From Candidatus Latescibacterota bacterium (GTDB taxonomy: Bacteria; Latescibacterota; UBA2968; UBA8231), in the NCBI GenBank assembly GCA_965206595.1, contig OZ242214.1, positions 4,128,001 through 4,192,000 of the forward strand: a stretch of DNA of 64,000 nt, read 5' to 3'. Positions within the stretch are counted from its first letter, which is position 1. Each line of letters begins with the position of its first letter. This document shows, in pieces, positions 7,624 through 53,892 of this stretch. The position numbers and the translations under genes were made by a program. Under the pieces are notes generated by a model that had not been told where the DNA came from, ran no database searches, and was given only the letters and a program-made list of their open reading frames with translations.

Positions 7624-9534
7624 TCACAGCTCGGGAGGAACCTCCCAGGCTGCGTCGAAACCCCCGGCACCCTCGATGCGGAAGCGGTTCTCCGCGAGGT
7701 CGAATTCCGCGGCGACTCCGTTGGCGAACTCGGTGCGCTGCCAGGAACCTTCCCCGTCGAGGAATCGGTGCGACACCATCTCGGAAAAGGCGACGGCGCG
7801 ATGAAAGGCGCTCCAGCGGACAAGCCACTGCTGTTTGGCGCGCTGCTGCTCGCTACCCCAGTTGGCCATCGGCACGACGGGGTAGGGGAGCCAGTTGTAC
7901 GACGGGGCGGAAGCGAACATCAGCTCGTACAGACGCGGGGTGCGGTCTTTCCACCAGTCGTAGCCCTTGGCGCAGGCGCTGTACCCGCCCCCGGAGAAGC
8001 CGGCCATGAAGCAGTCGTGGAAGACAAGCTGGAACAGCGGCACCGGCCGGCCGATTGGGGCGGAGCAGCCCTGGCTGGGCTCGTTCGACAGCCGGTCGCC
8101 GGCCCAGTCGGTGAAGAAGAAGAAGTCGCACTCCCCGATCGCCCAGAAACGGGCGAGCTCGGCCCCGGGCATGAGGCCGCGGCGCCGGGTCTCGGCGAAA
8201 CAGGCGGTTTCCGCCTCGATGTTGGCGCGCCGCGTCATCCGGTGCGGCGGCGAGAAATCCTCGGGCAGGCCGGCGTGAGCGGCGAAGCCGTCGCAGTACA
8301 TCGCATCCAGCTTGAGCCCGTGGTGCTCCAGCGAGTCGAAGATCATCCCCATGCGCTCGACGGCGTCCCGGCAGCTGAGAAGCCGGCCGCGTCTGCCCTT
8401 GCCGTCGAGGGGGTACCGGTCAGGGTCGTACGCGGCCCCTTCCGGCACCTGCATTCCCGGGTTCACGAACCCCTGAACCAGGCAGCCGAGTTCGCGGAGC
8501 CGGCGCTCGAGCCGCACCAGGGTGCCCCAGCCGCCGGGAACCGGGTCCGGGTGCAGGTAGGCCTGCCAGCCTGCGGTGCAGGAGGTCGGCGTCCCTTCCT
8601 CGGGGGAGTACCCGGCGGGAGACCACTTGGGGAAGAAGAAGTTGATTCCGATTCCATCGTTGCGAAGGCGGCGCACGTCCTCGATCACGGCCTCTCCTTC
8701 GTCGGGGTTCCAGGCCGGCCAGCGGTAGAGGACGTTGCCGGCGTAGCCGCGGATCGCCGGAGTCTGCTCGGCTTTTTCCCGCAGGGGGCGCACCAGACCC
8801 TGACCCGAGGCCTGGTTGCGGAACCATTTCGCCATGCCGGTGTAATCAGTCTTTCCGGCGAACCGCAGGAGCAGCCGCCGCGGGTACGCGAGCCGGCCGA
8901 GGCTGGCCTCCCAGTTGAAGCTGATCGCCGAGAATTCACCGGGAATGTGTTCGGCGGCGACATCGCAGTCCCACCAGGTATCGACGAGGGCGCAGAGCGA
9001 CCGGTCGCCGGCGGCGAGCCCGAACAGCGGCAGAGTCCAGCGGGCTCCCACGAAGCCGCCGGGAGGGGCCGTGCCCGGCAGTTCTTCGCCACAGTCGGCA
9101 GGTATCAGGTACCCCGATCCGTGGGGCAGCAGCATCCAGCCGCCGAGTCCGACCGGCTTCTCGATCCGGTACAGGTCGCGAACGGCAAGGACCGTGCCGG
9201 CCCCTCCGAGCTGCTCCACCTGCACCAGGAGCTCTCCGGCATCGCCGTCGATGCCGAGAAAGAGGCCGACGACGACGTCGGCTCCATCGTATCCCTCCAG
9301 GCGCAGCCGCTGTCCCCGGAAGCGTCCTTCCTCCCAGGATTCGGAGGCGACGTTAGAGGCCGCGGCGAGTGGGGACTCGACACGGCCGCGGCCGTCCGCG
9401 GCTATCAGGCGGGGTGGGAGCCGGCGCGAGCTCTCCCACAGCGGTCGCCCGTCGGCCCGATGGATCGCCATCCGCAACTCGTCGTCGAGGCTGACGCGAA
9501 TGCCGCCTCCTGCCAGGGTGACTTCAGGTATCAT
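7624..9534 (-). CDS. Putative glycoside hydrolase (DUF5696/GH101/GH129-like)
   Basis: 636 aa with DYTGMAKWFR, YCDGF, PVPLFQLVFHDC and a C-terminal HRFL...QRTEFANG..F pattern, as recalled for this group. Confidence 0.6.
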   Translation of the reverse strand: MIPEVTLAGGGIRVSLDDELRMAIHRADGRPLWESSRRLPPRLIAADGRGRVESPLAAASNVASESWEEGRFRGQRLRLEGYDGADVVVGLFLGIDGDAGELLVQVEQLGGAGTVLAVRDLYRIEKPVGLGGWMLLPHGSGYLIPADCGEELPGTAPPGGFVGARWTLPLFGLAAGDRSLCALVDTWWDCDVAAEHIPGEFSAISFNWEASLGRLAYPRRLLLRFAGKTDYTGMAKWFRNQASGQGLVRPLREKAEQTPAIRGYAGNVLYRWPAWNPDEGEAVIEDVRRLRNDGIGINFFFPKWSPAGYSPEEGTPTSCTAGWQAYLHPDPVPGGWGTLVRLERRLRELGCLVQGFVNPGMQVPEGAAYDPDRYPLDGKGRRGRLLSCRDAVERMGMIFDSLEHHGLKLDAMYCDGFAAHAGLPEDFSPPHRMTRRANIEAETACFAETRRRGLMPGAELARFWAIGECDFFFFTDWAGDRLSNEPSQGCSAPIGRPVPLFQLVFHDCFMAGFSGGGYSACAKGYDWWKDRTPRLYELMFASAPSYNWLPYPVVPMANWGSEQQRAKQQWLVRWSAFHRAVAFSEMVSHRFLDGEGSWQRTEFANGVAAEFDLAENRFRIEGAGGFDAAWEVPPEL

Positions 9535-9779
9535 GAGCCAAAAATCTCACCTGCTGCCGGTATCCGTCCAGGTTTATCTCGGGGTAGCCCGCGGCAAGGC
9601 GGACTCGGCCGGTAGTTACATCCGTGAGCAGCAGCCCTTGCCGACGGTTTCCGGGTTCTGCCGTTCCCTCCCGCCTGCCTGGTCCTTACGCACCTCTTTG
9701 CACGGCAGGATCGCACACCGGTCCGAGGCCGACTTTCATGCTGCCGTCCCGCAGGGAGAATCCCGGCCGGGTTGCTGTA

Positions 9780-11036
9780 TCATGGCCCCAGGGCGGCGAT
9801 CGGTATTACGGCCACTCCGTCGTCGCGAAGGTACCCGTACCCGGAACTCACGATCACCCCGAGGGTTTGCGGCACTCCGGTCTTCTCCGCGTCCACGCGG
9901 TCCCGGAATTTCAGCAGGGCTGCTGCCGCGGCGTCGATCTGTCCGCCCCCCAGTTTGACCTCGAAGGCGCACCAGTCGCCCCGGGGGGTTTCCACTACCG
10001 CATCCACTTCGAGACCGGTGTTGTCCCGGTAGTGATACACCGAGGCGCCGCTTGCCCGGGCGTACACGGAGAGCTCGCGGTGGGCCAGCGACTCGAACAG
10101 CAGACCGAGCAGCTCGAGATCTGCCAGCAGCCGCTCGGGGGTCGCGCCGAGAGCGGCCGCGGCCAGGGACGGGTCGACGAAATGCCGCTTCGGCGCCTGG
10201 CGCAGCAGCGACCGCGAGCGCAGGTGGGGCGACCAGGACGGCTGCTCTTCGTAGACCATCAGCCGGCGCAAGGCGTCGAGGTAGCCGCTCACCGTGTCGA
10301 CGTCGAGGGGGCCGCGGTCGCCACCGGCATCCGCGGCGATGGTGCGGGCGCTGACCGGGGTCGCCAGGTTCCGCGCCAGCGAGCGCAGCACCCTGCCGAC
10401 GTTCTCGGGGTCGCGCCGGACTCCATCGGGGCGGGAGATGTCGGCGCGGCGGATCTCCTCGAGGTAGTCGCTGCGGGCGCCCTGGCATGCCGCGTCGGAA
10501 AGCCCGAGGTCGCCGGGCCAGCCTCCCCGGCACAGCTGCACCGCGGCCTCCCGCAGGGACAGGCCGGGGTTCTGGCAGCTCTCGAATCCACCCTGCAACA
10601 GGTTCTGCAGGGAGATCTCGCCCGTGGAGATACCGGTCTCCAGCAGGGTCATGGTGCGTAACCGGAGCCGGGAGATGCGCCCCGCCCCGGTATGGCGGGT
10701 GATGTCGTCCGCTGGGGCTGCCGAACCGGTCAAGATGAACTGCCCGCGTTTCGTGCCTCTGTCGACGGCCCGCCGGACGTGGTTCCACAGCCCCGGCTCG
10801 ATCTGCCATTCGTCGATCAGCCGCGGGTTGTCCCCGGCCAATACCAGGGACGGATCGACAGCCGCGGCGCTTCGCGCGTTCTCGTCGACATCGAGCAACA
10901 CCTCGCTGGCCGCAACCTCTCGGGCCATGGCGGTCTTGCCGCAGGCCCTGGGACCCTCGATCAGCACGGCGCCGGCGGACTCAAGTCGGCGGGCAAGCTC
11001 CCGGTCCCCGATTCGCGGGATATATGCGCTTTGCAT
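9780..11036 (-). CDS. AAA_14 ATPase with C-terminal DUF4143 domain
   Basis: Walker A GPRACGKT, Walker B LIDEWQ, FILTGSA, GRI, GGWP, PKRHFVDPSL, GLLFE, YRDNTGLEVDAV and FEVK (PD-(D/E)xK-like). Confidence 0.92.
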   Translation of the reverse strand: MQSAYIPRIGDRELARRLESAGAVLIEGPRACGKTAMAREVAASEVLLDVDENARSAAAVDPSLVLAGDNPRLIDEWQIEPGLWNHVRRAVDRGTKRGQFILTGSAAPADDITRHTGAGRISRLRLRTMTLLETGISTGEISLQNLLQGGFESCQNPGLSLREAAVQLCRGGWPGDLGLSDAACQGARSDYLEEIRRADISRPDGVRRDPENVGRVLRSLARNLATPVSARTIAADAGGDRGPLDVDTVSGYLDALRRLMVYEEQPSWSPHLRSRSLLRQAPKRHFVDPSLAAAALGATPERLLADLELLGLLFESLAHRELSVYARASGASVYHYRDNTGLEVDAVVETPRGDWCAFEVKLGGGQIDAAAAALLKFRDRVDAEKTGVPQTLGVIVSSGYGYLRDDGVAVIPIAALGP

Positions 11037-40477: not shown

Positions 40478-41482
40478 TTATCGCGGGGCTGCGAACAGAA
40501 AGGACAACAGCGAGAATCGCTCCCCCGAGGTCACCGGGAGCACCTCGTGCAGAAGCGAGCTGGAAAAGAGGATGGCCGACCCGGCCCGGGGGCGATACAG
40601 GTCCGGTCCGTACTCGGGAAAGCGCAGCTCCCCCCCCTCGAAGCCGCCGTTGAGGTTGACGGTGAGCCCGAAACGGCGGTGCGCTGTCGCCGGGCTGAGG
40701 TTGTCCCGGTGGGCGTGGAAGAAGCCGCCATCAGCAGAGTCGTAGCAGACGATCTTGAACCCCTCGAAGCGGCTGGCTCGGTAGGCGAAGGCCTTCTGCA
40801 GTTCGGGGATGACGCGGCGCCCGACATGGGCGGTCAGCCGCTGCAACAGCCCGGGATCGGTGACGATGTGGTCGCGGCGCCGCTTGCGGTCCCCGGCGAC
40901 GACATCGACGCGGCGCCCCGCGAGGCTCGCCTCCACCCCGGTGGCCGCGGACCCATCATGCCGCCACTTCGAGATCAGCTCGGCGCACCAGGCCTCGTCG
41001 AGCACCCTCGGGACGATGAGCACCGGGGCCGGGGATTCGACAAGCCGCCCTTCCCGTTCGCTGCAGGCGGCAGCGAGGATCCGGGCGACCTCTTCTGCAG
41101 CACCGGCCGGGTTACCCAGGCCGAACCACCCGAGGATGCGCAGGTTCTCGTCGAGGAGGCAGACACTCGGTTTTTTCGAGGCGACCCCGTACGGCTCGCT
41201 GACCGCGGTTCCGGGCTCGGTGAAGGTGTCGAAGGAGAACTGCGTTTCCCCGCTTCCGCTGTCGCGGCCGGAAATGACCCCCAGGATCTCCACCCTGGCC
41301 GCGCACTGGCGGGTCAGGGCCGTGGCGAACGCCTCGGCCGCGGCCCCCTGTGAGGGCTCGGCAAAGATCAGCGCGCAGGGGGTGCCGCCGCCGCGGCCGT
41401 AGAACCGCACCGGGTCCCCGGAGGGGAAGGGCAGGGCGAAGTCCGGGGCGCGCAGGCCAGCCGCCAAGGGACCGCGGCTCAT
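40478..41482 (-). CDS. Redoxin-like N-terminus fused to a 2OG-Fe(II) oxygenase (prolyl-hydroxylase-like)
   Basis: APDFALP...LLDENLR; HRDN, NLN..FEGGELRFPEYG and LLHEVLPVTSGERF. Confidence 0.85.
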   Translation of the reverse strand: MSRGPLAAGLRAPDFALPFPSGDPVRFYGRGGGTPCALIFAEPSQGAAAEAFATALTRQCAARVEILGVISGRDSGSGETQFSFDTFTEPGTAVSEPYGVASKKPSVCLLDENLRILGWFGLGNPAGAAEEVARILAAACSEREGRLVESPAPVLIVPRVLDEAWCAELISKWRHDGSAATGVEASLAGRRVDVVAGDRKRRRDHIVTDPGLLQRLTAHVGRRVIPELQKAFAYRASRFEGFKIVCYDSADGGFFHAHRDNLSPATAHRRFGLTVNLNGGFEGGELRFPEYGPDLYRPRAGSAILFSSSLLHEVLPVTSGERFSLLSFLFAAPR

Positions 41483-41765: not shown

Positions 41766-42992
41766 ATGAAAGTGCCCTTTCCCCCTGGCAAGCAGATCGC
41801 CGGCATTCCACTGCTGCTGGCCGCTGTCCTTGCCGGCTGCTACACCCACTCCGGCCAGCCGGGGGACTCCGCTCCCGGGATCAGCTACCTCGACGAACGT
41901 TCGCTCGGGGGCGCCGTCGCGATGGAAGGCCATGTCGTCCTCCTTCACCTCGAAAGCCCGGAGGCGGAGCAGGCCCATCGCGGCGATACGGGAGAAATCG
42001 GTACTGACGTGATTCCCCTTGTCTTCGAGCGCCGGTCGCAGCGAACCCTGCGCATCGGAAGCTGGGCCCACCCTTCGAGCAGGGTCGAGCTGATCGATGC
42101 CTCGGGGACGGTTCTGCTCCGCGCCGGCGCGGCCTCGCCGTCAGCTACCGCCGATATTCCCCGGGGGCGCTACCGGCTGTGCGTATCCCAGGGCGAGGGA
42201 CGCCGGGGGGTAGGGACGCTGTTTATGCGGGCAGATCCCGACACGATGGTGGTTTCCAAGGACTGCCGCGGATGCCGCCTGTCCGGAGCGGATCTCGGGA
42301 GGGCGCGCCTGGCCGCCGCGGACCTGGGCGGCGCCGAACTGCGCGCCGCGAACCTCACCTCCGCCGACCTTACGGAGTCCCGGCTTTCCGGGGCCAACCT
42401 GCGGGGAGCGGTGGTCAACCGGGCGCGCCTTTCAGGGGCGGCCCTGCGGCAGACCGATCTCACGGGGGCAGACCTGATCGCCAGCGACCTGTCCGGGGCC
42501 GATCTCGGGAAGGCGGTAGCCCGCGACGCCAGCTTCGACAGCACCAGCATGGAAGAGGCCGACCTCTCAGGCGCCGACCTGACGGGGGCGACCCTGCGGG
42601 GTGCCGTGCTCAGCGGCGCGGACCTGCGCGGCGCCCGCTTCGTGGGCTCGGAGCTCGACGGGGCGGTCATGAGGTCCGCTGACCTGGGAAACGCCGACTT
42701 CGGAGGCGCGCGGCTCGTGGGGGTCGACCTGGGGGATGCTCTCATCGACAAGGTCGACTTCATCGCTGCCGATCTGCGCCGGGCCAACCTGAAGGGGGCC
42801 CGCCTGGGACGGGTCAAGCTCCGGGGTTGCAGTCTGATCGGTGCCACATGGACGGACGGGACCGTCTGCGGTCACGGATCGGAAGGGCGCTGTGTTCCGA
42901 TGTCTCCGGGAATGCTGCTGCCTGGGCTGGTCCAGTCAGTGGTGCCCGCGGATAGCGGGGGAGCCGAAGTTCCCCGGAGGTCAGGCAAGTGA
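41766..42992 (+). CDS. Pentapeptide-repeat lipoprotein
   Basis: Lipobox LAG-C; long A(D/N)LxG run bounded by CRGC and TWTDGTVC...C. Confidence 0.88.
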   Translation: MKVPFPPGKQIAGIPLLLAAVLAGCYTHSGQPGDSAPGISYLDERSLGGAVAMEGHVVLLHLESPEAEQAHRGDTGEIGTDVIPLVFERRSQRTLRIGSWAHPSSRVELIDASGTVLLRAGAASPSATADIPRGRYRLCVSQGEGRRGVGTLFMRADPDTMVVSKDCRGCRLSGADLGRARLAAADLGGAELRAANLTSADLTESRLSGANLRGAVVNRARLSGAALRQTDLTGADLIASDLSGADLGKAVARDASFDSTSMEEADLSGADLTGATLRGAVLSGADLRGARFVGSELDGAVMRSADLGNADFGGARLVGVDLGDALIDKVDFIAADLRRANLKGARLGRVKLRGCSLIGATWTDGTVCGHGSEGRCVPMSPGMLLPGLVQSVVPADSGGAEVPRRSGK

Positions 42993-43555
42993 ACGGAATT
43001 ACCGGAAGCATCGCGGCGAGCTGTCTTTCCCGCCTTCGCCGGCTGGCCCTGGCGGCCGCAGTCGGATCGTGTCTTTTTCTCACCGCCGCAGCCTCGGCGG
43101 CTCCGAAATCGCAGTTCACGCTGCCGACTCTCGACGGCGGGCAGTTCTCCCTGCAGGAGGCCCTGAAGCAGGGTCCGGTGGTTCTCGATTTCTGGGCGAC
43201 CTGGTGCAAGCCGTGCATCAAGGCGCTGCCGAAGCTGCAGAAAATCGCCGAGGAGTACCGGGAGCGCGGGGTCGGGGTTTACACCGTGAACACCGATGGG
43301 CCGCGCAACCAGCCCAAGGTGCGGCCGTTCCTGAAGCGCCACCGGCTCGAGCTGCCGGTACTCTTCGACCACACGAGGCAGGTGATGAAGCAGTTTCAGC
43401 TCTCCGTCCTTCCGGCGACGATGATCATCTCGACCGAAGGGGCAGTCGTGTACAAGCACGTGGGGTACAAACCAGGCGACGAAACCGGGCTCCGCGACAA
43501 GCTGGCGGAGCTGCTGTCAGTGCAACTCGATTCCACGGAAAGCAGGAGCGAATGA
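42989..43555 (+). CDS. TlpA/ResA-type exported disulfide reductase
   Basis: Signal peptide; DFWATWCKPC; cis-Pro loop LPAT; GTG start overlaps the upstream stop. Confidence 0.9.
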   Translation: MNGITGSIAASCLSRLRRLALAAAVGSCLFLTAAASAAPKSQFTLPTLDGGQFSLQEALKQGPVVLDFWATWCKPCIKALPKLQKIAEEYRERGVGVYTVNTDGPRNQPKVRPFLKRHRLELPVLFDHTRQVMKQFQLSVLPATMIISTEGAVVYKHVGYKPGDETGLRDKLAELLSVQLDSTESRSE

Positions 43556-44436
43556 AAACCCCGATCAGGCGTAGATGGCGGTCGGCCGGCGCGGCGATCG
43601 CGTGCGGTGCCTTTCTGATTTGCGGGCCGAACGGCGCCGAAGCCCAGGTGACCATCGGCGATATCGCCCCCGAGTTCGAGCTCGAAACAGTGGACGGTCA
43701 GTTCGTCTCGCTGAGCGACTTCCGCGACGAAAAGGTTGTCTTTCTCAATATTTTGGGGAACACCTGACCGTACTGTATCGCGGGGGCCGCGAATTCCGAA
43801 GCAATATGGCAGGACTACGGGGGCGACGGCTTCATCGCACTCGGCATCGACATCTGGAACGCCAGTCCCGCTGGCGTCCAGGCAGTATGGATCGACGACG
43901 GGCTGGCCACCTACCCGCTGCTCGTCAACGGTTCCAGTGTCGGCAGCGACTACGGCGTCGGGCAGGACCACTACTTCGTGATCGATCACGAGGGGATCGT
44001 CCGCTACCGGTCCGGCTCCGGCCCGCTCGGCGAACGCTTCGTCGACGGGGAGATCCGCGAGGCAATCGAAGCCTCTCTCGAGGACCTCGCCGACTTCCTG
44101 GAGGATGAGCAAGCGGTGGAGGAAGTGACCACGGAGGTAGCGGCGGGGCCACAGCTTCCTGCCCGGTTCGAGGTGGGGCACGTATACCCGAATCCCTTCA
44201 ATTCCGAAACCACGCTCTCGTTCACGGTGAGGGCGGCAGGATCGCTGACCCTGATGTTGTACGATCTGCGCGGCCGGGTGGTACGCGACTGGTCGGGGCA
44301 TTTCGAGGCCGGAAGGAACTCCCTGACCTGGGACGGCCGTGACCAGGACGGAAATGCTCTTGCCAGCGGGGTGTACATCGCATCGGCGCGGCAGGGGGGC
44401 AGCGCGATAGCGCGCAAGATCACCCTGCTGAAGTAG
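43552..44436 (+). CDS. Probable selenoprotein: exported AhpC/TSA-type redoxin (UxxC) with a C-terminal FlgD/T9SS-like Ig domain
   Basis: One reading frame from ATG 43552 through TGA 43765-43767 (codon 72): ...APEFELETVDGQFVSLSDFRDEKVVFLNILGNT-U-PYC...FIALGID...YPLL...YGV...YFVIDHEGIVRY...YPNPFN...YDLRGRVVR...WDGRD..G..LASGVY...KITLLK. Confidence 0.85.
43768..43794 (+). promoter_or_regulatory. Candidate bacterial SECIS hairpin
   Basis: TCGCGG-GGG-CCGCGA stem-loop (43778-43792) with a G-rich loop starting 16 nt after the TGA. Confidence 0.6.
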
Positions 44437-45373: not shown

Positions 45374-46933
45374 CTACAGCACCCTGCTCGTCAGACGTAT
45401 CTCCACCCCTTCGAACCCTAGCACCTCGTAGCAGGTCCCCCCGGTACAGGCCAGCCCGGTGCGCCGTTTTCCCGCGAACAGGTTCGCCGTGTGGGCGTCG
45501 CGGAACAGCCAGCTCGTCCCCAGGGCCCACCAGTAGGTCACCCCCGACTCGGAGGCCCCGATCTCCAGCGGGTCGTTGGACCTCTGGAGCTGCAGCGACC
45601 AGGTCCAGGCCGGATAGCGGGTTACCTCGGCCGCGGCATGCAGGTTTTCGTAAGGGAACCGCCTGCTGCCGAAGCGGCGGTCGACGTCCTGGAACTGCAG
45701 GTCCGCGGCGACGGAGTAGCGCCTGCCCGCGGACCAGTCCCACCGGGTGCCGGCGGTAATCCGCCGCTCGTTCTGGAGTATGCGGCTGCGCGCGAAGTCG
45801 AGGAAACCCTGCCCGTGAAACGTCTCGCCGACCGGGGAATCGAGCTGCAGGAAGTACTCGCTCAGCGACTTCGCCTCCTCCCCGGGACGGGAGCCCCTGC
45901 GGGTGGCCAGGTTCCAGGCGGCGATAAGCCCGACCTGCCGCGGCAGGGCCCAGGTCAGCTCCGCCTGGATTCCGGTTTCGTCGTCAGGGAGCAAGGTGTG
46001 CGTCTGCCGGTTGAGGAGGAAGGCCTCGTGCTCCCGGATCAGGGTAGGCGGGTTGTTGATCGTGGGAAAGTTGAAGTCGTCGTAATCCTTGAGCTCCAGG
46101 CTCAGCCCCCAGGCGCCGCCGGTGAAGGTGCTGGCGAGGTAGAGCCCCCGCGCGTGCTCGCGGTCGAGGGAGAACCAGCTGTCGAGGGCCGGATCGATAC
46201 GGGCGTACTCGCCGTACAGATCGCCGTACCAATCCCGCAACCCGAGCGCTTTCAGCAGGGAACCGAAACGGACCCGGGCATGGGTGGTGGCGCCGCGCTC
46301 TTCGCCGTCGAAATCGAGCACCCCCATGCCGACCTCGAATTCCGCCCAGGGTCGGGCGCTGAAGGCCCCCCCGGAAACGCGCCCGCCGCGGCGCTCGGGG
46401 CCCTTCTGGCCGGGGGCGAGCTCGCTGTCCACCGGGCTGCCGGTGAGCAGCAGCAGGTCGACGTCTCCCCGGCGGTAGCGGACCTGGAAACCGCCGAGGT
46501 CCTGCGTGATCTGGTAGCGCCTCCGGGAGACGCGGTTTTCGGTGACGACTCCGGGAAGCTCGAAGGCGTGCAACAGCAGTCCGCTGCCGACGAGGGTGAG
46601 GTAGGTCCCCGCGATCGCCTCGAAACCTCCCTGCCGGTAGGAGAGGGAGCGCTGGGCGAGATGGAAGTAGTCGCGCCCGCCTTCGCTGGAGCGGAACGCC
46701 TCGCTGCGCAGGCTGGCGAGAAAACCTTCGGTTTCAAAGCCAAAATTCAGCTGCTGGTAGACCGTGCGCAGATCGCCGGGCTCCGACCCGGGCAGGTTGC
46801 CGAGTTGGTACTCGTGATGGGCGGTCAGCTGCGGCTGGGAAGTAGCAGGTCCCGCGGCGGCCAGCATGCCGGCCAGGAACGAACAGGCGAGTCGCCGGAG
46901 GGGGGATGGAGCTTTATCTGCTTTCTGCGGCAT
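45374..46933 (-). CDS. DUF6029-like outer-membrane protein with a C-terminal CxxxxC
   Basis: Signal peptide, alternating beta-strand pattern, GSGLLL, ELKDY, NNPPTL.REH, E.GIQ and GKRRTGLACTGGTCYEVLGFEG; family assignment from memory. Confidence 0.7.
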   Translation of the reverse strand: MPQKADKAPSPLRRLACSFLAGMLAAAGPATSQPQLTAHHEYQLGNLPGSEPGDLRTVYQQLNFGFETEGFLASLRSEAFRSSEGGRDYFHLAQRSLSYRQGGFEAIAGTYLTLVGSGLLLHAFELPGVVTENRVSRRRYQITQDLGGFQVRYRRGDVDLLLLTGSPVDSELAPGQKGPERRGGRVSGGAFSARPWAEFEVGMGVLDFDGEERGATTHARVRFGSLLKALGLRDWYGDLYGEYARIDPALDSWFSLDREHARGLYLASTFTGGAWGLSLELKDYDDFNFPTINNPPTLIREHEAFLLNRQTHTLLPDDETGIQAELTWALPRQVGLIAAWNLATRRGSRPGEEAKSLSEYFLQLDSPVGETFHGQGFLDFARSRILQNERRITAGTRWDWSAGRRYSVAADLQFQDVDRRFGSRRFPYENLHAAAEVTRYPAWTWSLQLQRSNDPLEIGASESGVTYWWALGTSWLFRDAHTANLFAGKRRTGLACTGGTCYEVLGFEGVEIRLTSRVL

Positions 46934-46980
46934 CGTAGTTTCTCGACATAAGAAGACAAGCGATTCGGCGGATAGGCTCA

Positions 46981-47766
46981 ATGGAGCGAAGCGTTTTCGA
47001 GGGACTGGATGGGAAGCAGGCGGGGCGGCGTTCGGCCAAACCGCGGTCGGCAGGCCTTACCATGGTCGTCGACTGGGGAATGGGATCGAACCGGCAGAGG
47101 GACCTGCAGGATGCCGGCGGTCCCTTCATCGATTTTGCGAAGGTGGCGGTCGGAGTTTCCCGGCTCCTTCCCGGCTCCCTGCTGCAGGGCAAGATCGACT
47201 CCTATCTCGCCGGGGACATAGAGCCGTTTCCGGGAGGACAGTACCTGGAGTATGCGGAAACGGAAGGGAAGCTCGAGCGCTATTTCGAGGCGGTCGCCGA
47301 GGCCGGTTATCGCTGGGTCGAGGTCTCCGACAACCTGCTGCCTGCCACCGCGTCCTGGAAGGAGACGACCATCCGCAGGGCCCGGGAGGAATTCGGCCTG
47401 AACGTCCTCGGGGAGGTCGGCAGGAAGGAGGGGCTCGAAAACTCCATACCCCTGTCCGACAACGCCAGGATATGCCTCGAAGCCGGGGCCCAGCTCATCC
47501 TGCTGGAGGCGGCCGAACTGCTGGCGGGCGACAGCGCCACATTGGCAGCGGTCGAGGATATCGTCGTCGCGGCCGGTCTCGAAAAGGTGATGTTCGAGCT
47601 TCCCGGTCCCTGGATCGGGGGGGTGACCGCGAGCGACGTCCATCGCATCCGGCGCGAGCTGATCGACCGCTATGGAACCGAGGTCAATTTCGGCAACGTC
47701 GCTGCCGACGACCTTATGTCGCTCGAGGCTTACCGCCGCGGCCTGGGCATCAACGCCGGCAGCTGA
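46981..47766 (+). CDS. comA: (2R)-phospho-3-sulfolactate synthase family protein
   Basis: KPR..GLTMVVDWG, IDFAK, PGG..LE, EVSD, EVGRK, FE.P, VNFGNV and LEAYRRGL. Confidence 0.88.
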   Translation: MERSVFEGLDGKQAGRRSAKPRSAGLTMVVDWGMGSNRQRDLQDAGGPFIDFAKVAVGVSRLLPGSLLQGKIDSYLAGDIEPFPGGQYLEYAETEGKLERYFEAVAEAGYRWVEVSDNLLPATASWKETTIRRAREEFGLNVLGEVGRKEGLENSIPLSDNARICLEAGAQLILLEAAELLAGDSATLAAVEDIVVAAGLEKVMFELPGPWIGGVTASDVHRIRRELIDRYGTEVNFGNVAADDLMSLEAYRRGLGINAGS

Positions 47767-47839
47767 TCGGCCGGGGGCGAACCGCAATGACACCCAGTCG
47801 ATCCGCGTCCGGGTCAGCGAACCCCGCAGGCAGCAGTTC

Positions 47840-48685
47840 ATGAGGTCGGCCACCGCCTTCGCCCCAGGCAGCATTTCCGGTCTCTTCAAGATCATCGCCG
47901 ACGCCGACCCGGAGAAGATGCACTCCCTCGGGCTCAGCTTCACCGTTGCCGAGGGGGCCGAGGTCACCGTTTCGGAAGCCTCGCGCACCGCCGTCGCCTT
48001 CAACGGAGAGGAGATCCGCTTCCCGACCGTGGCGACCCTGGCAAGGCGGCTGAGCGACCGCGATTTCCACGTCGCCGTCGAGTCGGCCCTGCCGCTGAGC
48101 TGCGGATTTGGCCTGAGCGGGGCCTCCGCCCTCGCCGCGGCGTACGCCATCGATCGCCTGCTCGGCCTCGGCATGGCCGCAGAAGAGCTGGCACTGCACG
48201 CCCACGTGGCCGAGGTGGAGAACCTGACCGGGCTCGGGGACGTCTGCGCGCAGTACCACGGCGGATGCCTGGTCAAGCTGGCCCCCGGGTCTCCGCTGGT
48301 GGCACAGCGCCTCGGAGTGGCGGAGGGGGCGCCCATCCATTTCCGGTATTTCGGGCCGATAAGCACCCGGGAGGTGCTGTCCGATCCTCACCGCCGCGCC
48401 TCGGTGAACCAGGCCGCGGACGCCGCCCTGCGGCAGCTGTCCGGGCTCACCGACCGGGACGAGGTACCCATCGCCGAATGCGTGCGCATCTCCAGGCAGT
48501 TCGCCGGGGACAGCGGCCTGATGACCGATCCCCGGGTCAGGGAGGCGGTCGCTTCGGTGGAAGCCTCGGGAGGGGCGGCCTCGATGATCATGCTCGGGCA
48601 CGCCGTCTTCAGCACCGTCCCGTTCGCAGGCTCGACCGAGACGGCGCTGGCGCTCGACCCCGCCAGGGTGCAGGACGGACCATGA
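47840..48685 (+). CDS. Archaeal-type pantoate kinase (GHMP superfamily)
   Basis: AFAPGSISGLF, GHMP loop LPLSCGFGLSGASAL, AHVAEVENLTGLGDV and ASMIMLGHAVF. Confidence 0.88.
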   Translation: MRSATAFAPGSISGLFKIIADADPEKMHSLGLSFTVAEGAEVTVSEASRTAVAFNGEEIRFPTVATLARRLSDRDFHVAVESALPLSCGFGLSGASALAAAYAIDRLLGLGMAAEELALHAHVAEVENLTGLGDVCAQYHGGCLVKLAPGSPLVAQRLGVAEGAPIHFRYFGPISTREVLSDPHRRASVNQAADAALRQLSGLTDRDEVPIAECVRISRQFAGDSGLMTDPRVREAVASVEASGGAASMIMLGHAVFSTVPFAGSTETALALDPARVQDGP

Positions 48686-49419
48686 CCGACGTTCCCGAAA
48701 CCCACCCGCGCTACGAATCGCTGCGGCTGCGGGACGCCGTTGTCGCCGGCGTCGACCGCGGGGTGACCTCGGTACACGGGCTGATCGCCCACGGCCGCGG
48801 CGAGGCGTTCGACTACCTCCTCGGGGAGCGCACCCACGATTTCGCCCGGGAAGCGGTCGCCGCGGCCGCGGCCATGCTGGCGACAGCGCAGAGGCCGGTG
48901 CTGTCCGTCAACGGCAACGCCGCGGCTCTGGTCGCGGAGCGGATGGCGGCGCTCGCTGCGGCCCTCTCCTGCCCCCTGGAGGTCAACCTGTTCCACAGAT
49001 CGCACGAGCGCGAGCGGGCCATCGAAAGGCTGCTGGTCGAAAACGGCGCCACCCGGGTGCTGCTGCCTGCAGGGGACACCTTTCTCGAGGGGATCGACTC
49101 CAACAGGCGCTACGTCCACCCGGATGGGATTCACCGGGCGGACGTGGTCTTCGTGCCCCTCGAGGATGGCGACCGCTGCCAAGTGCTGCGCGCCGCGGGC
49201 AAGGAGGTGGTGACCGTCGACCTCAACCCCCTGTCGCGCACGGCGAAGTTGGCCAGTATCTCCATAGTCGACAACGTCGTCAGGGCGATGCCCATGCTGA
49301 TCGGGGCGGTGGACGCTGCGGCCTCCGACCCGGAAGGGAGCCGGCGTCTGCTCGGTGCGTACGACAACGGCCGCGTCCTGGAGGCGGCGGAGCAATGCAT
49401 GAGGAACCGATGGGAGTGA
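48682..49419 (+). CDS. Archaeal-type 4-phosphopantoate--beta-alanine ligase (phosphopantothenate synthetase)
   Basis: VPETHPRYESL, GLIAHGRGEAFDYLLGERT, SVNGN, EVNLFHR, VPLEDGDR, DLNPLSRT and VDNVVRA. Confidence 0.92.
   Translation: MTDVPETHPRYESLRLRDAVVAGVDRGVTSVHGLIAHGRGEAFDYLLGERTHDFAREAVAAAAAMLATAQRPVLSVNGNAAALVAERMAALAAALSCPLEVNLFHRSHERERAIERLLVENGATRVLLPAGDTFLEGIDSNRRYVHPDGIHRADVVFVPLEDGDRCQVLRAAGKEVVTVDLNPLSRTAKLASISIVDNVVRAMPMLIGAVDAAASDPEGSRRLLGAYDNGRVLEAAEQCMRNRWE

Positions 49420-51936: not shown

Positions 51937-53892
<1,956 letters not shown>

Follow-up and report, generated by a model that had tools for sequence, protein, structure and literature searches.

The stretch of DNA examined here, referred to throughout as the window, spans 64,000 nucleotides of a Candidatus Latescibacterota genome (assembly GCA_965206595.1, contig OZ242214.1, positions 4,128,001 to 4,192,000 of the forward strand). 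At 43552-44436 of the window lies a gene that is cut in two by an in-frame TGA, and that very probably encodes an exported redoxin in which this TGA is decoded as selenocysteine (U). Between ATG 43552 and the TAG ending at 44436 the frame holds a single internal stop, the TGA at 43765-43767 (codon 72), and the list of open reading frames (ORFs) on the forward strand presents the gene as two same-frame pieces, 42841..43767 and 43978..44436. Read through the TGA, the product is 294 residues long, and U72 stands within G-N-T-U-P-Y-C. The start codon and the TGA stop of an upstream TlpA-like ORF (42989..43555) overlap in the letters ATGA. A preliminary description, made from the letters of the window, had claimed this split of the ORF track, a 294-residue read-through protein with one recoded codon, a TGA at the first-cysteine position of a CxxC motif (T-U-P-Y-C here, W-C-K-P-C in the adjacent TlpA-like ORF) and a hairpin TCGCGG-GGG-CCGCGA downstream; each was recovered on re-examination, the hairpin at 43778-43792 with its loop beginning 16 nt past the TGA. 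The features of the gene, all on the forward strand, are:

43552..44436 (+): whole putative selenoprotein gene, 294 codons and a TAG stop (44434-44436); orthologues intact in loci L001-L011 and frameshifted in L012 (see below)
43544..43548 (+): Shine-Dalgarno-like AGGAG ahead of ATG 43552, read from the sequence
43552..43644 (+): putative signal peptide, residues 1-31, recognised by eye from a basic n-region, a hydrophobic core and A-E-A followed by Q
43645..44115 (+): thioredoxin-fold redoxin domain, residues 32-188, TlpA/ResA/CcmG-like by Pfam, Protein Data Bank matches, AlphaFold2 and Foldseek
43765..43767 (+): in-frame TGA, read as U72, first position of UxxC; column invariant in the family alignment
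43774..43776 (+): TGT, Cys75, the putative resolving cysteine of U-P-Y-C; invariant in the family alignment and Cys in 71 of 72 representatives
43778..43792 (+): hairpin resembling a bacterial selenocysteine insertion sequence (bSECIS), 6-bp stem and GGG loop; passes published constraints and is conserved in relatives
43915..43917 (+): CCG, Pro122 of a T-Y-P loop, at the cis-proline position of thioredoxin folds by sequence position, the cis geometry being assumed by analogy
44116..44199 (+): acidic, predicted disordered linker, residues 189-216, rich in Glu and Asp, with a predicted local distance difference test (pLDDT) score below 50
44200..44433 (+): C-terminal beta-sandwich tail, residues 217-294, resembling type IX secretion system (T9SS) type A sorting and FlgD-Ig domains by PF18962, PF13860, TIGR04183 and the model

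Conservation of the TGA in related loci

A scan of a genome collection matched 382 stretches, from which 359 relatives were confirmed and 75 loci kept; twelve of these, L001-L012, include the redoxin part of the gene. They belong to metagenome-assembled genomes labelled Latescibacterota, Gemmatimonadaceae, Planctomycetota, Calditrichia and Neomarinimicrobiota, and their products share 31-82% identity with the window protein. In-frame translation of all twelve meets a stop at one column with recognisable protein on either side, and the codon at this column, that of U72, is TGA in 12 of 12. The motifs around it vary (GNT*PYC, GNT*PFC, GYS*PFC, GYG*DFC, GWN*PTC, ASW*GSC and GYN*PFC), so the loci hold diverged genes and not copies. 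All 11 intact orthologues begin, ahead of the TGA, at an ATG with a GGAG-like motif and continue with what looks like a signal peptide; the frameshifted copy of L012 has only TTG and GTG starts. Ratios of nonsynonymous to synonymous substitution (dN/dS; Nei-Gojobori, six pairwise comparisons) are 0.06-0.25 over 36 codons before the TGA and 0.19-0.33 over 72 codons after it, and both halves are therefore coding and constrained.

Two of these loci, L012 (10001-10824) and L009 (10001-10765), lie on a single contig, OZ244235.1, and represent two family copies in one genome, both with the TGA. The frameshift of the L012 copy falls about 59 codons past the TGA and reflects either decay or an assembly error.

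Homologues and annotation

Among 5.8 billion protein clusters, a word-indexed search found 111 matches. The closest 36 (43-89% identity) are 162-219 residues long and never span more than 73% of the query, in every case its C-terminal part; the 14 close homologues taken into the alignment all begin no earlier than the column after the TGA. Four distant matches of 259-262 residues (P0038, P0039, P0041 and P0042) are full length and have cysteine at the U72 column, reading G-N-T-C-P-H-C, G-Y-G-C-P-H-C, G-Y-A-C-P-H-C and G-Y-A-C-S-H-C against G-N-T-U-P-Y-C in the window. An exhaustive HMMER search of 1.84 billion cluster representatives yielded 29 relatives at E ≤1e-30 and 9320 at 1e-10. The best 150 of these representatives comprise 58 full-length proteins of redoxin plus tail, 24 with the redoxin in another or partial architecture, 37 with the tail only, 30 short proteins whose first aligned query residue is 76-143 and never earlier, and one protein of 70 residues that matches residues 1-71.

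When the 150 were pooled with three sequences from the cluster search, 72 of the 153 were full length (235-300 residues). The U72 column of this set holds Cys in 70, Tyr in one and a gap in one, and never Trp or Gly; the second cysteine, at the C75 column, is present in 71 of 72, and the commonest motifs are CPFC (15), CPYC (14) and CPHC (8). Judged on sequence, a column that alternates in this way between TGA and cysteine is the signature of a classical selenocysteine/cysteine pair. The preliminary description had named Cys or TGA as the state to look for in homologues, and tryptophan or an unconserved residue as the outcome that would speak against it; the loci have TGA without exception (12 of 12), and among the full-length representatives 70 of 72 have Cys and none has Trp. 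It had also predicted that standard annotation would split the gene, and that is what public databases contain, with 36 close entries that are all C-terminal, 30 of 150 representatives that start past column 72 and one 70-residue N-terminal piece. The family is systematically mis-annotated, and thereby hidden, in public gene calls.

The predicted protein

Four Pfam domains match the 294-residue product, each above its own curated cut-off: AhpC-TSA (residues 35-152, 2.6e-14, profile positions 1-123 of 124), Redoxin (2.7e-11), FlgD_ig (PF13860, residues 221-279, 1.3e-9, 38.3 bits against a cut-off of 27) and Por_Secre_tail (PF18962, residues 211-290 of 294, 1.1e-6, 29.3 bits against 27). TIGR04183, the NCBIfam model of the type IX type A sorting domain, is likewise above threshold, with 33.6 bits where 23 are required. 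These matches agree with the thioredoxin-fold redoxin and FlgD/T9SS-like tail of the preliminary description. None of the curated NCBIfam selenoprotein models reaches its cut-off on the 294-residue protein. The layout of a signal peptide (basic, then hydrophobic, with an end of the A-x-A/Q type) is kept in the family alignment, as judged by eye, and the tail carries Y-P-N-P-F-N, S-G-V-Y and a basic extreme C-terminus, motifs that we take to be typical of type A tails.

In a sequence search of solved structures the best matches were TlpA-like 'thioredoxin family' proteins and CcmG, DsbE and ResA, with 3kcm and 3hdc at 5.9e-7; U72 aligns to the first cysteine of their W-C-P-P-C and W-C-P-Y-C motifs. 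An AlphaFold2 model built on a 16-sequence alignment has a mean pLDDT of 77.7, with means over 10-residue blocks of 86-97 for residues 31-180 and 79-88 for residues 221-290, and values below 50 in the signal-peptide stretch (residues 1-29) and the linker (189-216). The tail is modelled with six strands between 220 and 292. In the redoxin domain a strand (62-68) precedes U72 and a helix (73-89) begins directly after it, which places U72-P-Y-C75 at the N-terminus of the first long helix, as in a dyad of the CxxC type. Foldseek matched the model to AhpE, ResA and CcmG at target TM-scores of 0.76-0.85; a CPHC form of ResA, Bcp and Etrx2, a surface thioredoxin of pneumococcus, are also among its matches, whose target TM-scores lie around 0.8. 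The family alignment shows no change at Pro122 of the T-Y-P loop, and 61 of the 72 representatives have proline there.

Two other assignments were considered and rejected. Peroxiredoxins of the AhpC/Prx type carry the motif PxxxTxxC around the peroxidatic residue, according to the accessible part of PMC13188914, and this motif is absent: positions -3 and -7 are Gly69 and Leu65 relative to U72, and U72 and Leu68 relative to C75. The similarity to AhpE is thus at the level of the fold only, and the absent motif, together with the invariant proline of the T-Y-P loop, groups the protein with thiol-disulfide oxidoreductases and not with peroxiredoxins; a selenocysteine enzyme could still reduce peroxides. 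As for a FlgD hook-capping protein, only the Ig-like PF13860 matches, and the 16-29 bits reached by the NCBIfam FlgD equivalogs fall far short of their cut-offs (230-383).

A hairpin at a fixed distance from the TGA

The element of Escherichia coli fdhF is the paradigm of a SECIS. The hairpin in the window is small, with 6 bp, a GGG loop, a spacing of 16 nt and a folding energy of -8.0 kcal/mol. It was compared with its counterparts in L001-L012 under two sets of constraints. The wider set, with values from the Fig. 2 legend of PMC13188914 (the part of that paper that was available), was coded without mismatches and asks for a loop of 3-9 nt, a stem of 4-16 bp, G in the first two loop positions, a spacing of 16-37 nt and a minimum free energy of ≤-7.5 kcal/mol; 11 of the 13 family genes (window plus L001-L012) pass, against a background in which 109 of 1301 TGA trinucleotides in the GC-rich window also do so. 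The narrower set asks for at least 6 pairs, a 3-nt loop containing GG and a spacing of 16-17, and such a hairpin follows 12 of the 13 family TGAs as against 40 of 7165 TGA sites (0.56%) in the window and L001-L012, the 40 including the family's 12, an excess well above what chance would give.

The 63-column alignment around the TGA is gap-free. The window and L001-L008 share TCGCGG / RGG / CCGCGA (6 bp, spacing 16), L009 has TCTCGGA / GGC / TCCGAGA and L011 GTGCGGA / GGT / TCCGCAC (both 7 bp, spacing 17), and the GG of the loop occupies alignment columns 33-34 in 12 of the 13 sequences. Counted from the outside, pair 1 is U-A or G-C, pair 2 C-G or U-A, pair 3 G-C or U-A, and the extra inner pair A-U or C-G. 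Such changes are double and compensatory, those of L009 and L011 altering the encoded amino acids as well, and pairing is kept in four distinct stem sequences. L008, whose product has 42% identity to the window protein and whose codons around the site are AT-rich, has the window's stem and the whole hairpin of L003-L007. Codon use points the same way: in the nine closest genes, 77 columns have an invariant amino acid with degenerate codons, and 12 of them use a single codon; three of these 12 are the Ala codons in the stem, the remaining columns being fixed in 9 of 74 cases and the other invariant Ala columns in 0 of 3. The pairing, distance and codon data together show nucleotides constrained beyond what the protein needs, at a fixed distance from the TGA. 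By analogy with known bacterial elements, such constraint is what a SelB-binding element would predict, and contact with SelB may be supposed on that ground.

For the alignment, MAFFT on hairpin-centred pieces fell back to the codon register, and the two stem registers were compared by hand and by script. A covariance model of the 63-nt region, run over the window and L001-L013, found the 13 known sites and three weak matches (E 0.03-0.97), and therefore no further copies; the alignment it produced is distorted by long insertions and was excluded from the pair counts.

Neighbouring genes

Three neighbouring genes share the locus:

42989..43555 (+): TlpA/ResA-like redoxin with W-C-K-P-C and a signal peptide, by Pfam and NCBIfam; ATGA overlap with the putative selenoprotein gene
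45374..46981 (-): DUF6029 protein (Pfam PF19494), predicted large outer-membrane beta-barrel; likely start ATG 46930
41766..42992 (+): pentapeptide-repeat protein (Pfam Pentapeptide, 1.3e-57), first gene of the local string

When these neighbours were compared by tblastn with L001-L013, a TlpA-like gene was found immediately ahead of the selenoprotein gene in L001-L008 and in its vicinity in L010. A DUF6029 gene adjoins the redoxin pair in 10 of 13 loci if the window is included (the window itself, L001-L008 and L010), in convergent, divergent and co-directional arrangements. L009, L011 and L012 have neither neighbour within 10 kb, which applies to both copies of the genome that carries two. 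The pentapeptide-repeat gene is found in the closest relatives L001 and L002 only; its product has 408 residues and a lipoprotein-like N-terminus, and its stop overlaps the start of the TlpA-like gene.

An AlphaFold2 model of the DUF6029 protein, on a 40-sequence alignment, is all-beta, with more than 20 long strands, a pLDDT of 77.5 and a predicted TM-score (pTM) of 0.74. Foldseek relates it to usher pores, MOMP and OprD-type porins, with query TM-scores of about 0.4-0.55, a generic likeness, as far as the model goes, to large outer-membrane barrels. A C-terminal cysteine pair, C495/C500, is invariant in nine close orthologues and nearly so in 40. A complex prediction of DUF6029 residues 30-518 with the tail (44164-44433), made without alignments, scored 0.00 and gave no verdict. 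The association of the three genes supports a shared function in the envelope and does not imply contact. In L010 the DUF6029 gene (8446-9934, +) matches in two frames (8542-9390 and 9455-9934), and is thus frameshifted or mis-assembled; it is the same locus that has no hairpin.

Other features of the window

On the forward strand at 46981-49419, a ComA-like phosphosulfolactate synthase, a GHMP-family kinase and a PF02006 phosphopantothenate/pantothenate synthetase stand together, a string kept in L001 and L002; PF02006 is presumably an archaeal-type enzyme, here in a bacterial window. Between 12738 and 31264, six or seven PhyH-type dioxygenase paralogues lie among BNR/sialidase-like, ThuA, nucleotidyl-transferase, epimerase and methyltransferase genes, a run that looks like a sugar or lipid modification cluster. 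A gene at 40478-41482 (-) has a 2OG-Fe(II) oxygenase C-terminal domain and an N-terminal part that is redoxin-like by eye; it is kept in L001 and L002, just upstream of the string of pentapeptide, TlpA-like and selenoprotein genes. A search of the window for other selenoprotein candidates gave four TGA-bridged ORF pairs that passed a filter on GC content at third codon positions (GC3), none in the context of a redox motif; the filter also missed the TGA at 43765-43767.

Interpretation and alternatives

In our view the gene at 43552-44436 is genuine and conserved and encodes a selenoprotein whose chemistry is of a known kind, with a probability of roughly 0.85-0.9. The best explanation of the locus is an intact, selenocysteine-decoded gene for an exported redoxin with a sorting tail (about 0.85), in keeping with the core of the preliminary description, a hidden exported UxxC selenoprotein, which is upheld by a TGA common to all 12 loci, by Cys in its place in 70 of 72 full-length homologues, by purifying selection on both sides and by a hairpin with compensatory changes. 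By analogy with bacterial SelB/SECIS decoding, translation from ATG 43552 would be coupled to that of the TlpA-like gene upstream; a SelB-type factor with Sec-tRNA(Sec), held by the hairpin at 43778-43792, would meet the ribosome at UGA72, and selenocysteine would be inserted with no termination. From alignment and model, the redox centre U72-P-Y-C75 would sit where helix 73-89 begins, opposite the T-Y-P122 loop. The protein would probably be exported through the Sec translocon and act as an envelope selenol/thiol-disulfide oxidoreductase that cycles via a U72-C75 selenenylsulfide, and its tail may direct it across the outer membrane to the surface, or tether it there. Gene order suggests as partners the co-transcribed periplasmic TlpA-like redoxin and the neighbouring DUF6029 barrel.

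Several observations weigh against this explanation. Taken by itself the hairpin, with 6 bp and -8.0 kcal/mol, is small and does not reach significance: the 61-nt fold (43765-43825) has z = 0.53, with 139 of 200 shuffles folding equally well or better. Rfam, run over the whole window at gathering thresholds, gave no match, and around the TGA at E up to 10 it gave one chance snoRNA match only. The stem of L012 (GTGCGGC / GGC / GCCGGAC) has one G-G mismatch, L010 alone in the family has no hairpin by either the strict or the narrow criteria, and most of the stem evidence comes from just four independent sequence types. The claim of a SECIS-like hairpin is upheld by the comparison of relatives, through compensatory changes and the narrow form in 12 of 13, and not by the single-sequence fold. 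Genes for selA, selB, selD and tRNA-Sec were not found in the window or the fetched loci, as scanned by Pfam on 53 window ORFs, by ARAGORN on the window and L001-L012, and by tblastn of SelA, SelB and SelD from E. coli K-12 against the window and the 75 loci (1.08 Mb), the last returning one weak GTPase-domain match in the unrelated L019. Gemmatimonas aurantiaca, the sole cultured Gemmatimonadetes genome in Table S1 of PMC5029168, has no selenium trait in the accessible part of that table. Secretion and surface sorting are read from the domains, Pfam found no type IX secretion gene among the 53 ORFs, and the partnership with the TlpA-like and DUF6029 proteins is deduced from gene order. On the supporting side, the same partially available table records Caldithrix abyssi and some SAR406 genomes as SelD+, SelA+ and SelB+; relatives of L010 and L011 thus carry the selenocysteine trait, which for the lineage of the window is presumed. 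ARAGORN also called a 99-nt tRNA-Ser (anticodon CGA) at 53416-53514 (-), inside an ABC-F ORF at 51937-53892 (+) with Pfam matches up to residue 641; Rfam has no tRNA there, and the call is probably a false positive and not a tRNA-Sec.

Other accounts of the TGA have to be set beside these points. In a pseudogene whose Cys codon had mutated to TGA, or under a sequencing error, no full-length protein would be made, and indeed the ORF is formally interrupted and the frameshift further downstream in L012 suggests that decay occurs in the family; yet a TGA held at one column in 12 of 12 loci of diverged lineages, purifying selection on either side of it, starts and putative signal peptides conserved ahead of it, and the break of 30 of the best 150 representatives at this point make either extremely improbable. 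Were the TGA instead an ordinary amino acid, through reassignment to Trp or Gly or through near-cognate Cys or Trp read-through, the failure to find the selenocysteine machinery in the window and fetched loci would be expected. TGA nevertheless ends 28 of 44 Pfam-supported window ORFs (TAG 13, TAA 3), including the overlapping upstream gene, and terminates the redoxin gene itself in L008, L009 and L010; full-length homologues place Cys in the column 70 times out of 72 and Tyr once, with Trp and Gly absent, and a conserved hairpin at a fixed distance has no role in simple read-through. Genome-wide reassignment is excluded, read-through without the machinery is unlikely, and we regard this account as a whole as improbable. 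The locus might also give two products, a 71-residue exported peptide and a downstream protein from an internal start, since public gene calls consist of exactly such pieces and GTG 43978 opens an ORF of 152 codons. Against this, the called internal starts are not conserved (first aligned query residue 76-143), two products would mean a severed thioredoxin fold, with strand 62-68 parted from helix 73-89 and the redox centre lost, the downstream piece would carry a secretion tail and no signal peptide, and full-length Cys forms of like architecture are common (58 of the best 150); it is, in our view, very improbable.

The destination of the protein is more finely balanced. It may be a true selenoprotein that stays in the periplasm beside TlpA, with the tail serving as a binding or anchoring module of the FlgD-Ig type and not as a type IX signal, an account to which we give somewhat less than even odds. 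FlgD_ig outscores Por_Secre_tail (38.3 against 29.3 bits), the window holds no type IX secretion gene, and the TlpA-like neighbour is periplasmic by family, and direct redox hand-over would require the two proteins to share a compartment. Set against these are a TIGR04183 score above its cut-off, the position of the domain at the extreme C-terminus as in type A cargo, the annotation of relatives with the same tail as T9SS type A sorting proteins, and the precedent of HBP35 of Porphyromonas gingivalis, in which a thioredoxin motif is combined with such a tail and the protein is secreted by that system, according to the accessible parts of PMC2907840 and PMC3120885. A broader proposal, that a cell-surface selenoenzyme, the TlpA-like reductase and the DUF6029 barrel form an undescribed trans-envelope redox relay, widespread in Latescibacterota/Gemmatimonadota-like and other bacteria of the FCB group, is speculative and, on present evidence, unlikely.

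Relation to known systems

Among predicted bacterial selenoproteins no kind is commoner than the UxxC redoxins, and the chemistry proposed here is accordingly not new. The tables of the 2026 review PMC13188914, in the part available, list UxxC thioredoxin-fold families of the PF00578, PF13098, cd02966 and PF08534 types, and exported kinds that include DsbA-like, DsbG-like and thiol:disulfide interchange proteins and an outer-membrane barrel family; putative secreted protease selenoproteins have been predicted as well (PMC2398784, likewise in part). Selenoproteins of this kind are thus on record, exported ones among them, and the 'unusual location' of the preliminary description was overstated. 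The UxxC redoxins of the former source resemble the window protein in their AhpC-TSA/Redoxin/TlpA-like fold, selenocysteine at the first position of UxxC, Cys homologues and a UGA followed by a small stem-loop. They differ, in a comparison by description only, in that its accessible text mentions no C-terminal sorting domain, no FCB-group lineages and no TlpA and DUF6029 neighbourhood; the family may already have been catalogued, simply as a 'redoxin'. As measured against the bSECIS consensus in that part of PMC13188914, the hairpin shares its place 3' of the UGA within the coding region, its small apical loop with GG, its spacing (16-17 nt) and an energy of ≤-7.5 kcal/mol, and lies at the minimal end of the range, with 6-7 bp, a 3-nt loop, the lowest spacing, no lower stem and no bulge seen.

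For the architecture, the nearest precedent is HBP35, in which a thioredoxin-type motif is joined to a C-terminal domain for secretion and surface attachment (PMC2907840, PMC3120885, each in its accessible part); unlike the window protein, as compared by description and not by sequence, it is haem-binding and belongs to Bacteroidota. Oxidoreductases of the TlpA/ResA/CcmG/Etrx type (3kcm, 3hdc, 2b1k, 3k8n, 3c71, 4hqz) are the best matches in sequence and fold, are exported, and align their first cysteine with U72, but they use Cys, mostly preceded by Trp where the window has Thr (Trp is found in L011 only), and have neither the acidic linker nor the beta-sandwich tail. HBP35, too, is presumably a cysteine and not a selenocysteine protein. 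A literature search on selenoproteins and type IX secretion found no relevant paper, and one on type IX secretion in the phyla of these loci found nothing useful. In PMC8318568 the phyla appear as bins only. A tail of the T9SS type on a selenoprotein is apparently new, and the architecture and neighbourhood appear to be undescribed.

Significance

The truncated database entries imply that metagenome annotation of little-studied phyla under-counts both selenoproteins and redox enzymes of the envelope. The minimal 6-bp hairpin with its GG loop, kept across phylum-level distances, is a compact natural candidate SECIS, and the conserved module of TlpA-like protein, redoxin and barrel gives DUF6029 a first functional context. 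If selenocysteine is indeed carried on cargo of the type IX kind, a selenol would be placed at or beyond the outer membrane, and if the proposed relay were real, these bacteria would conduct selenium-based thiol or peroxide chemistry outside the cell.

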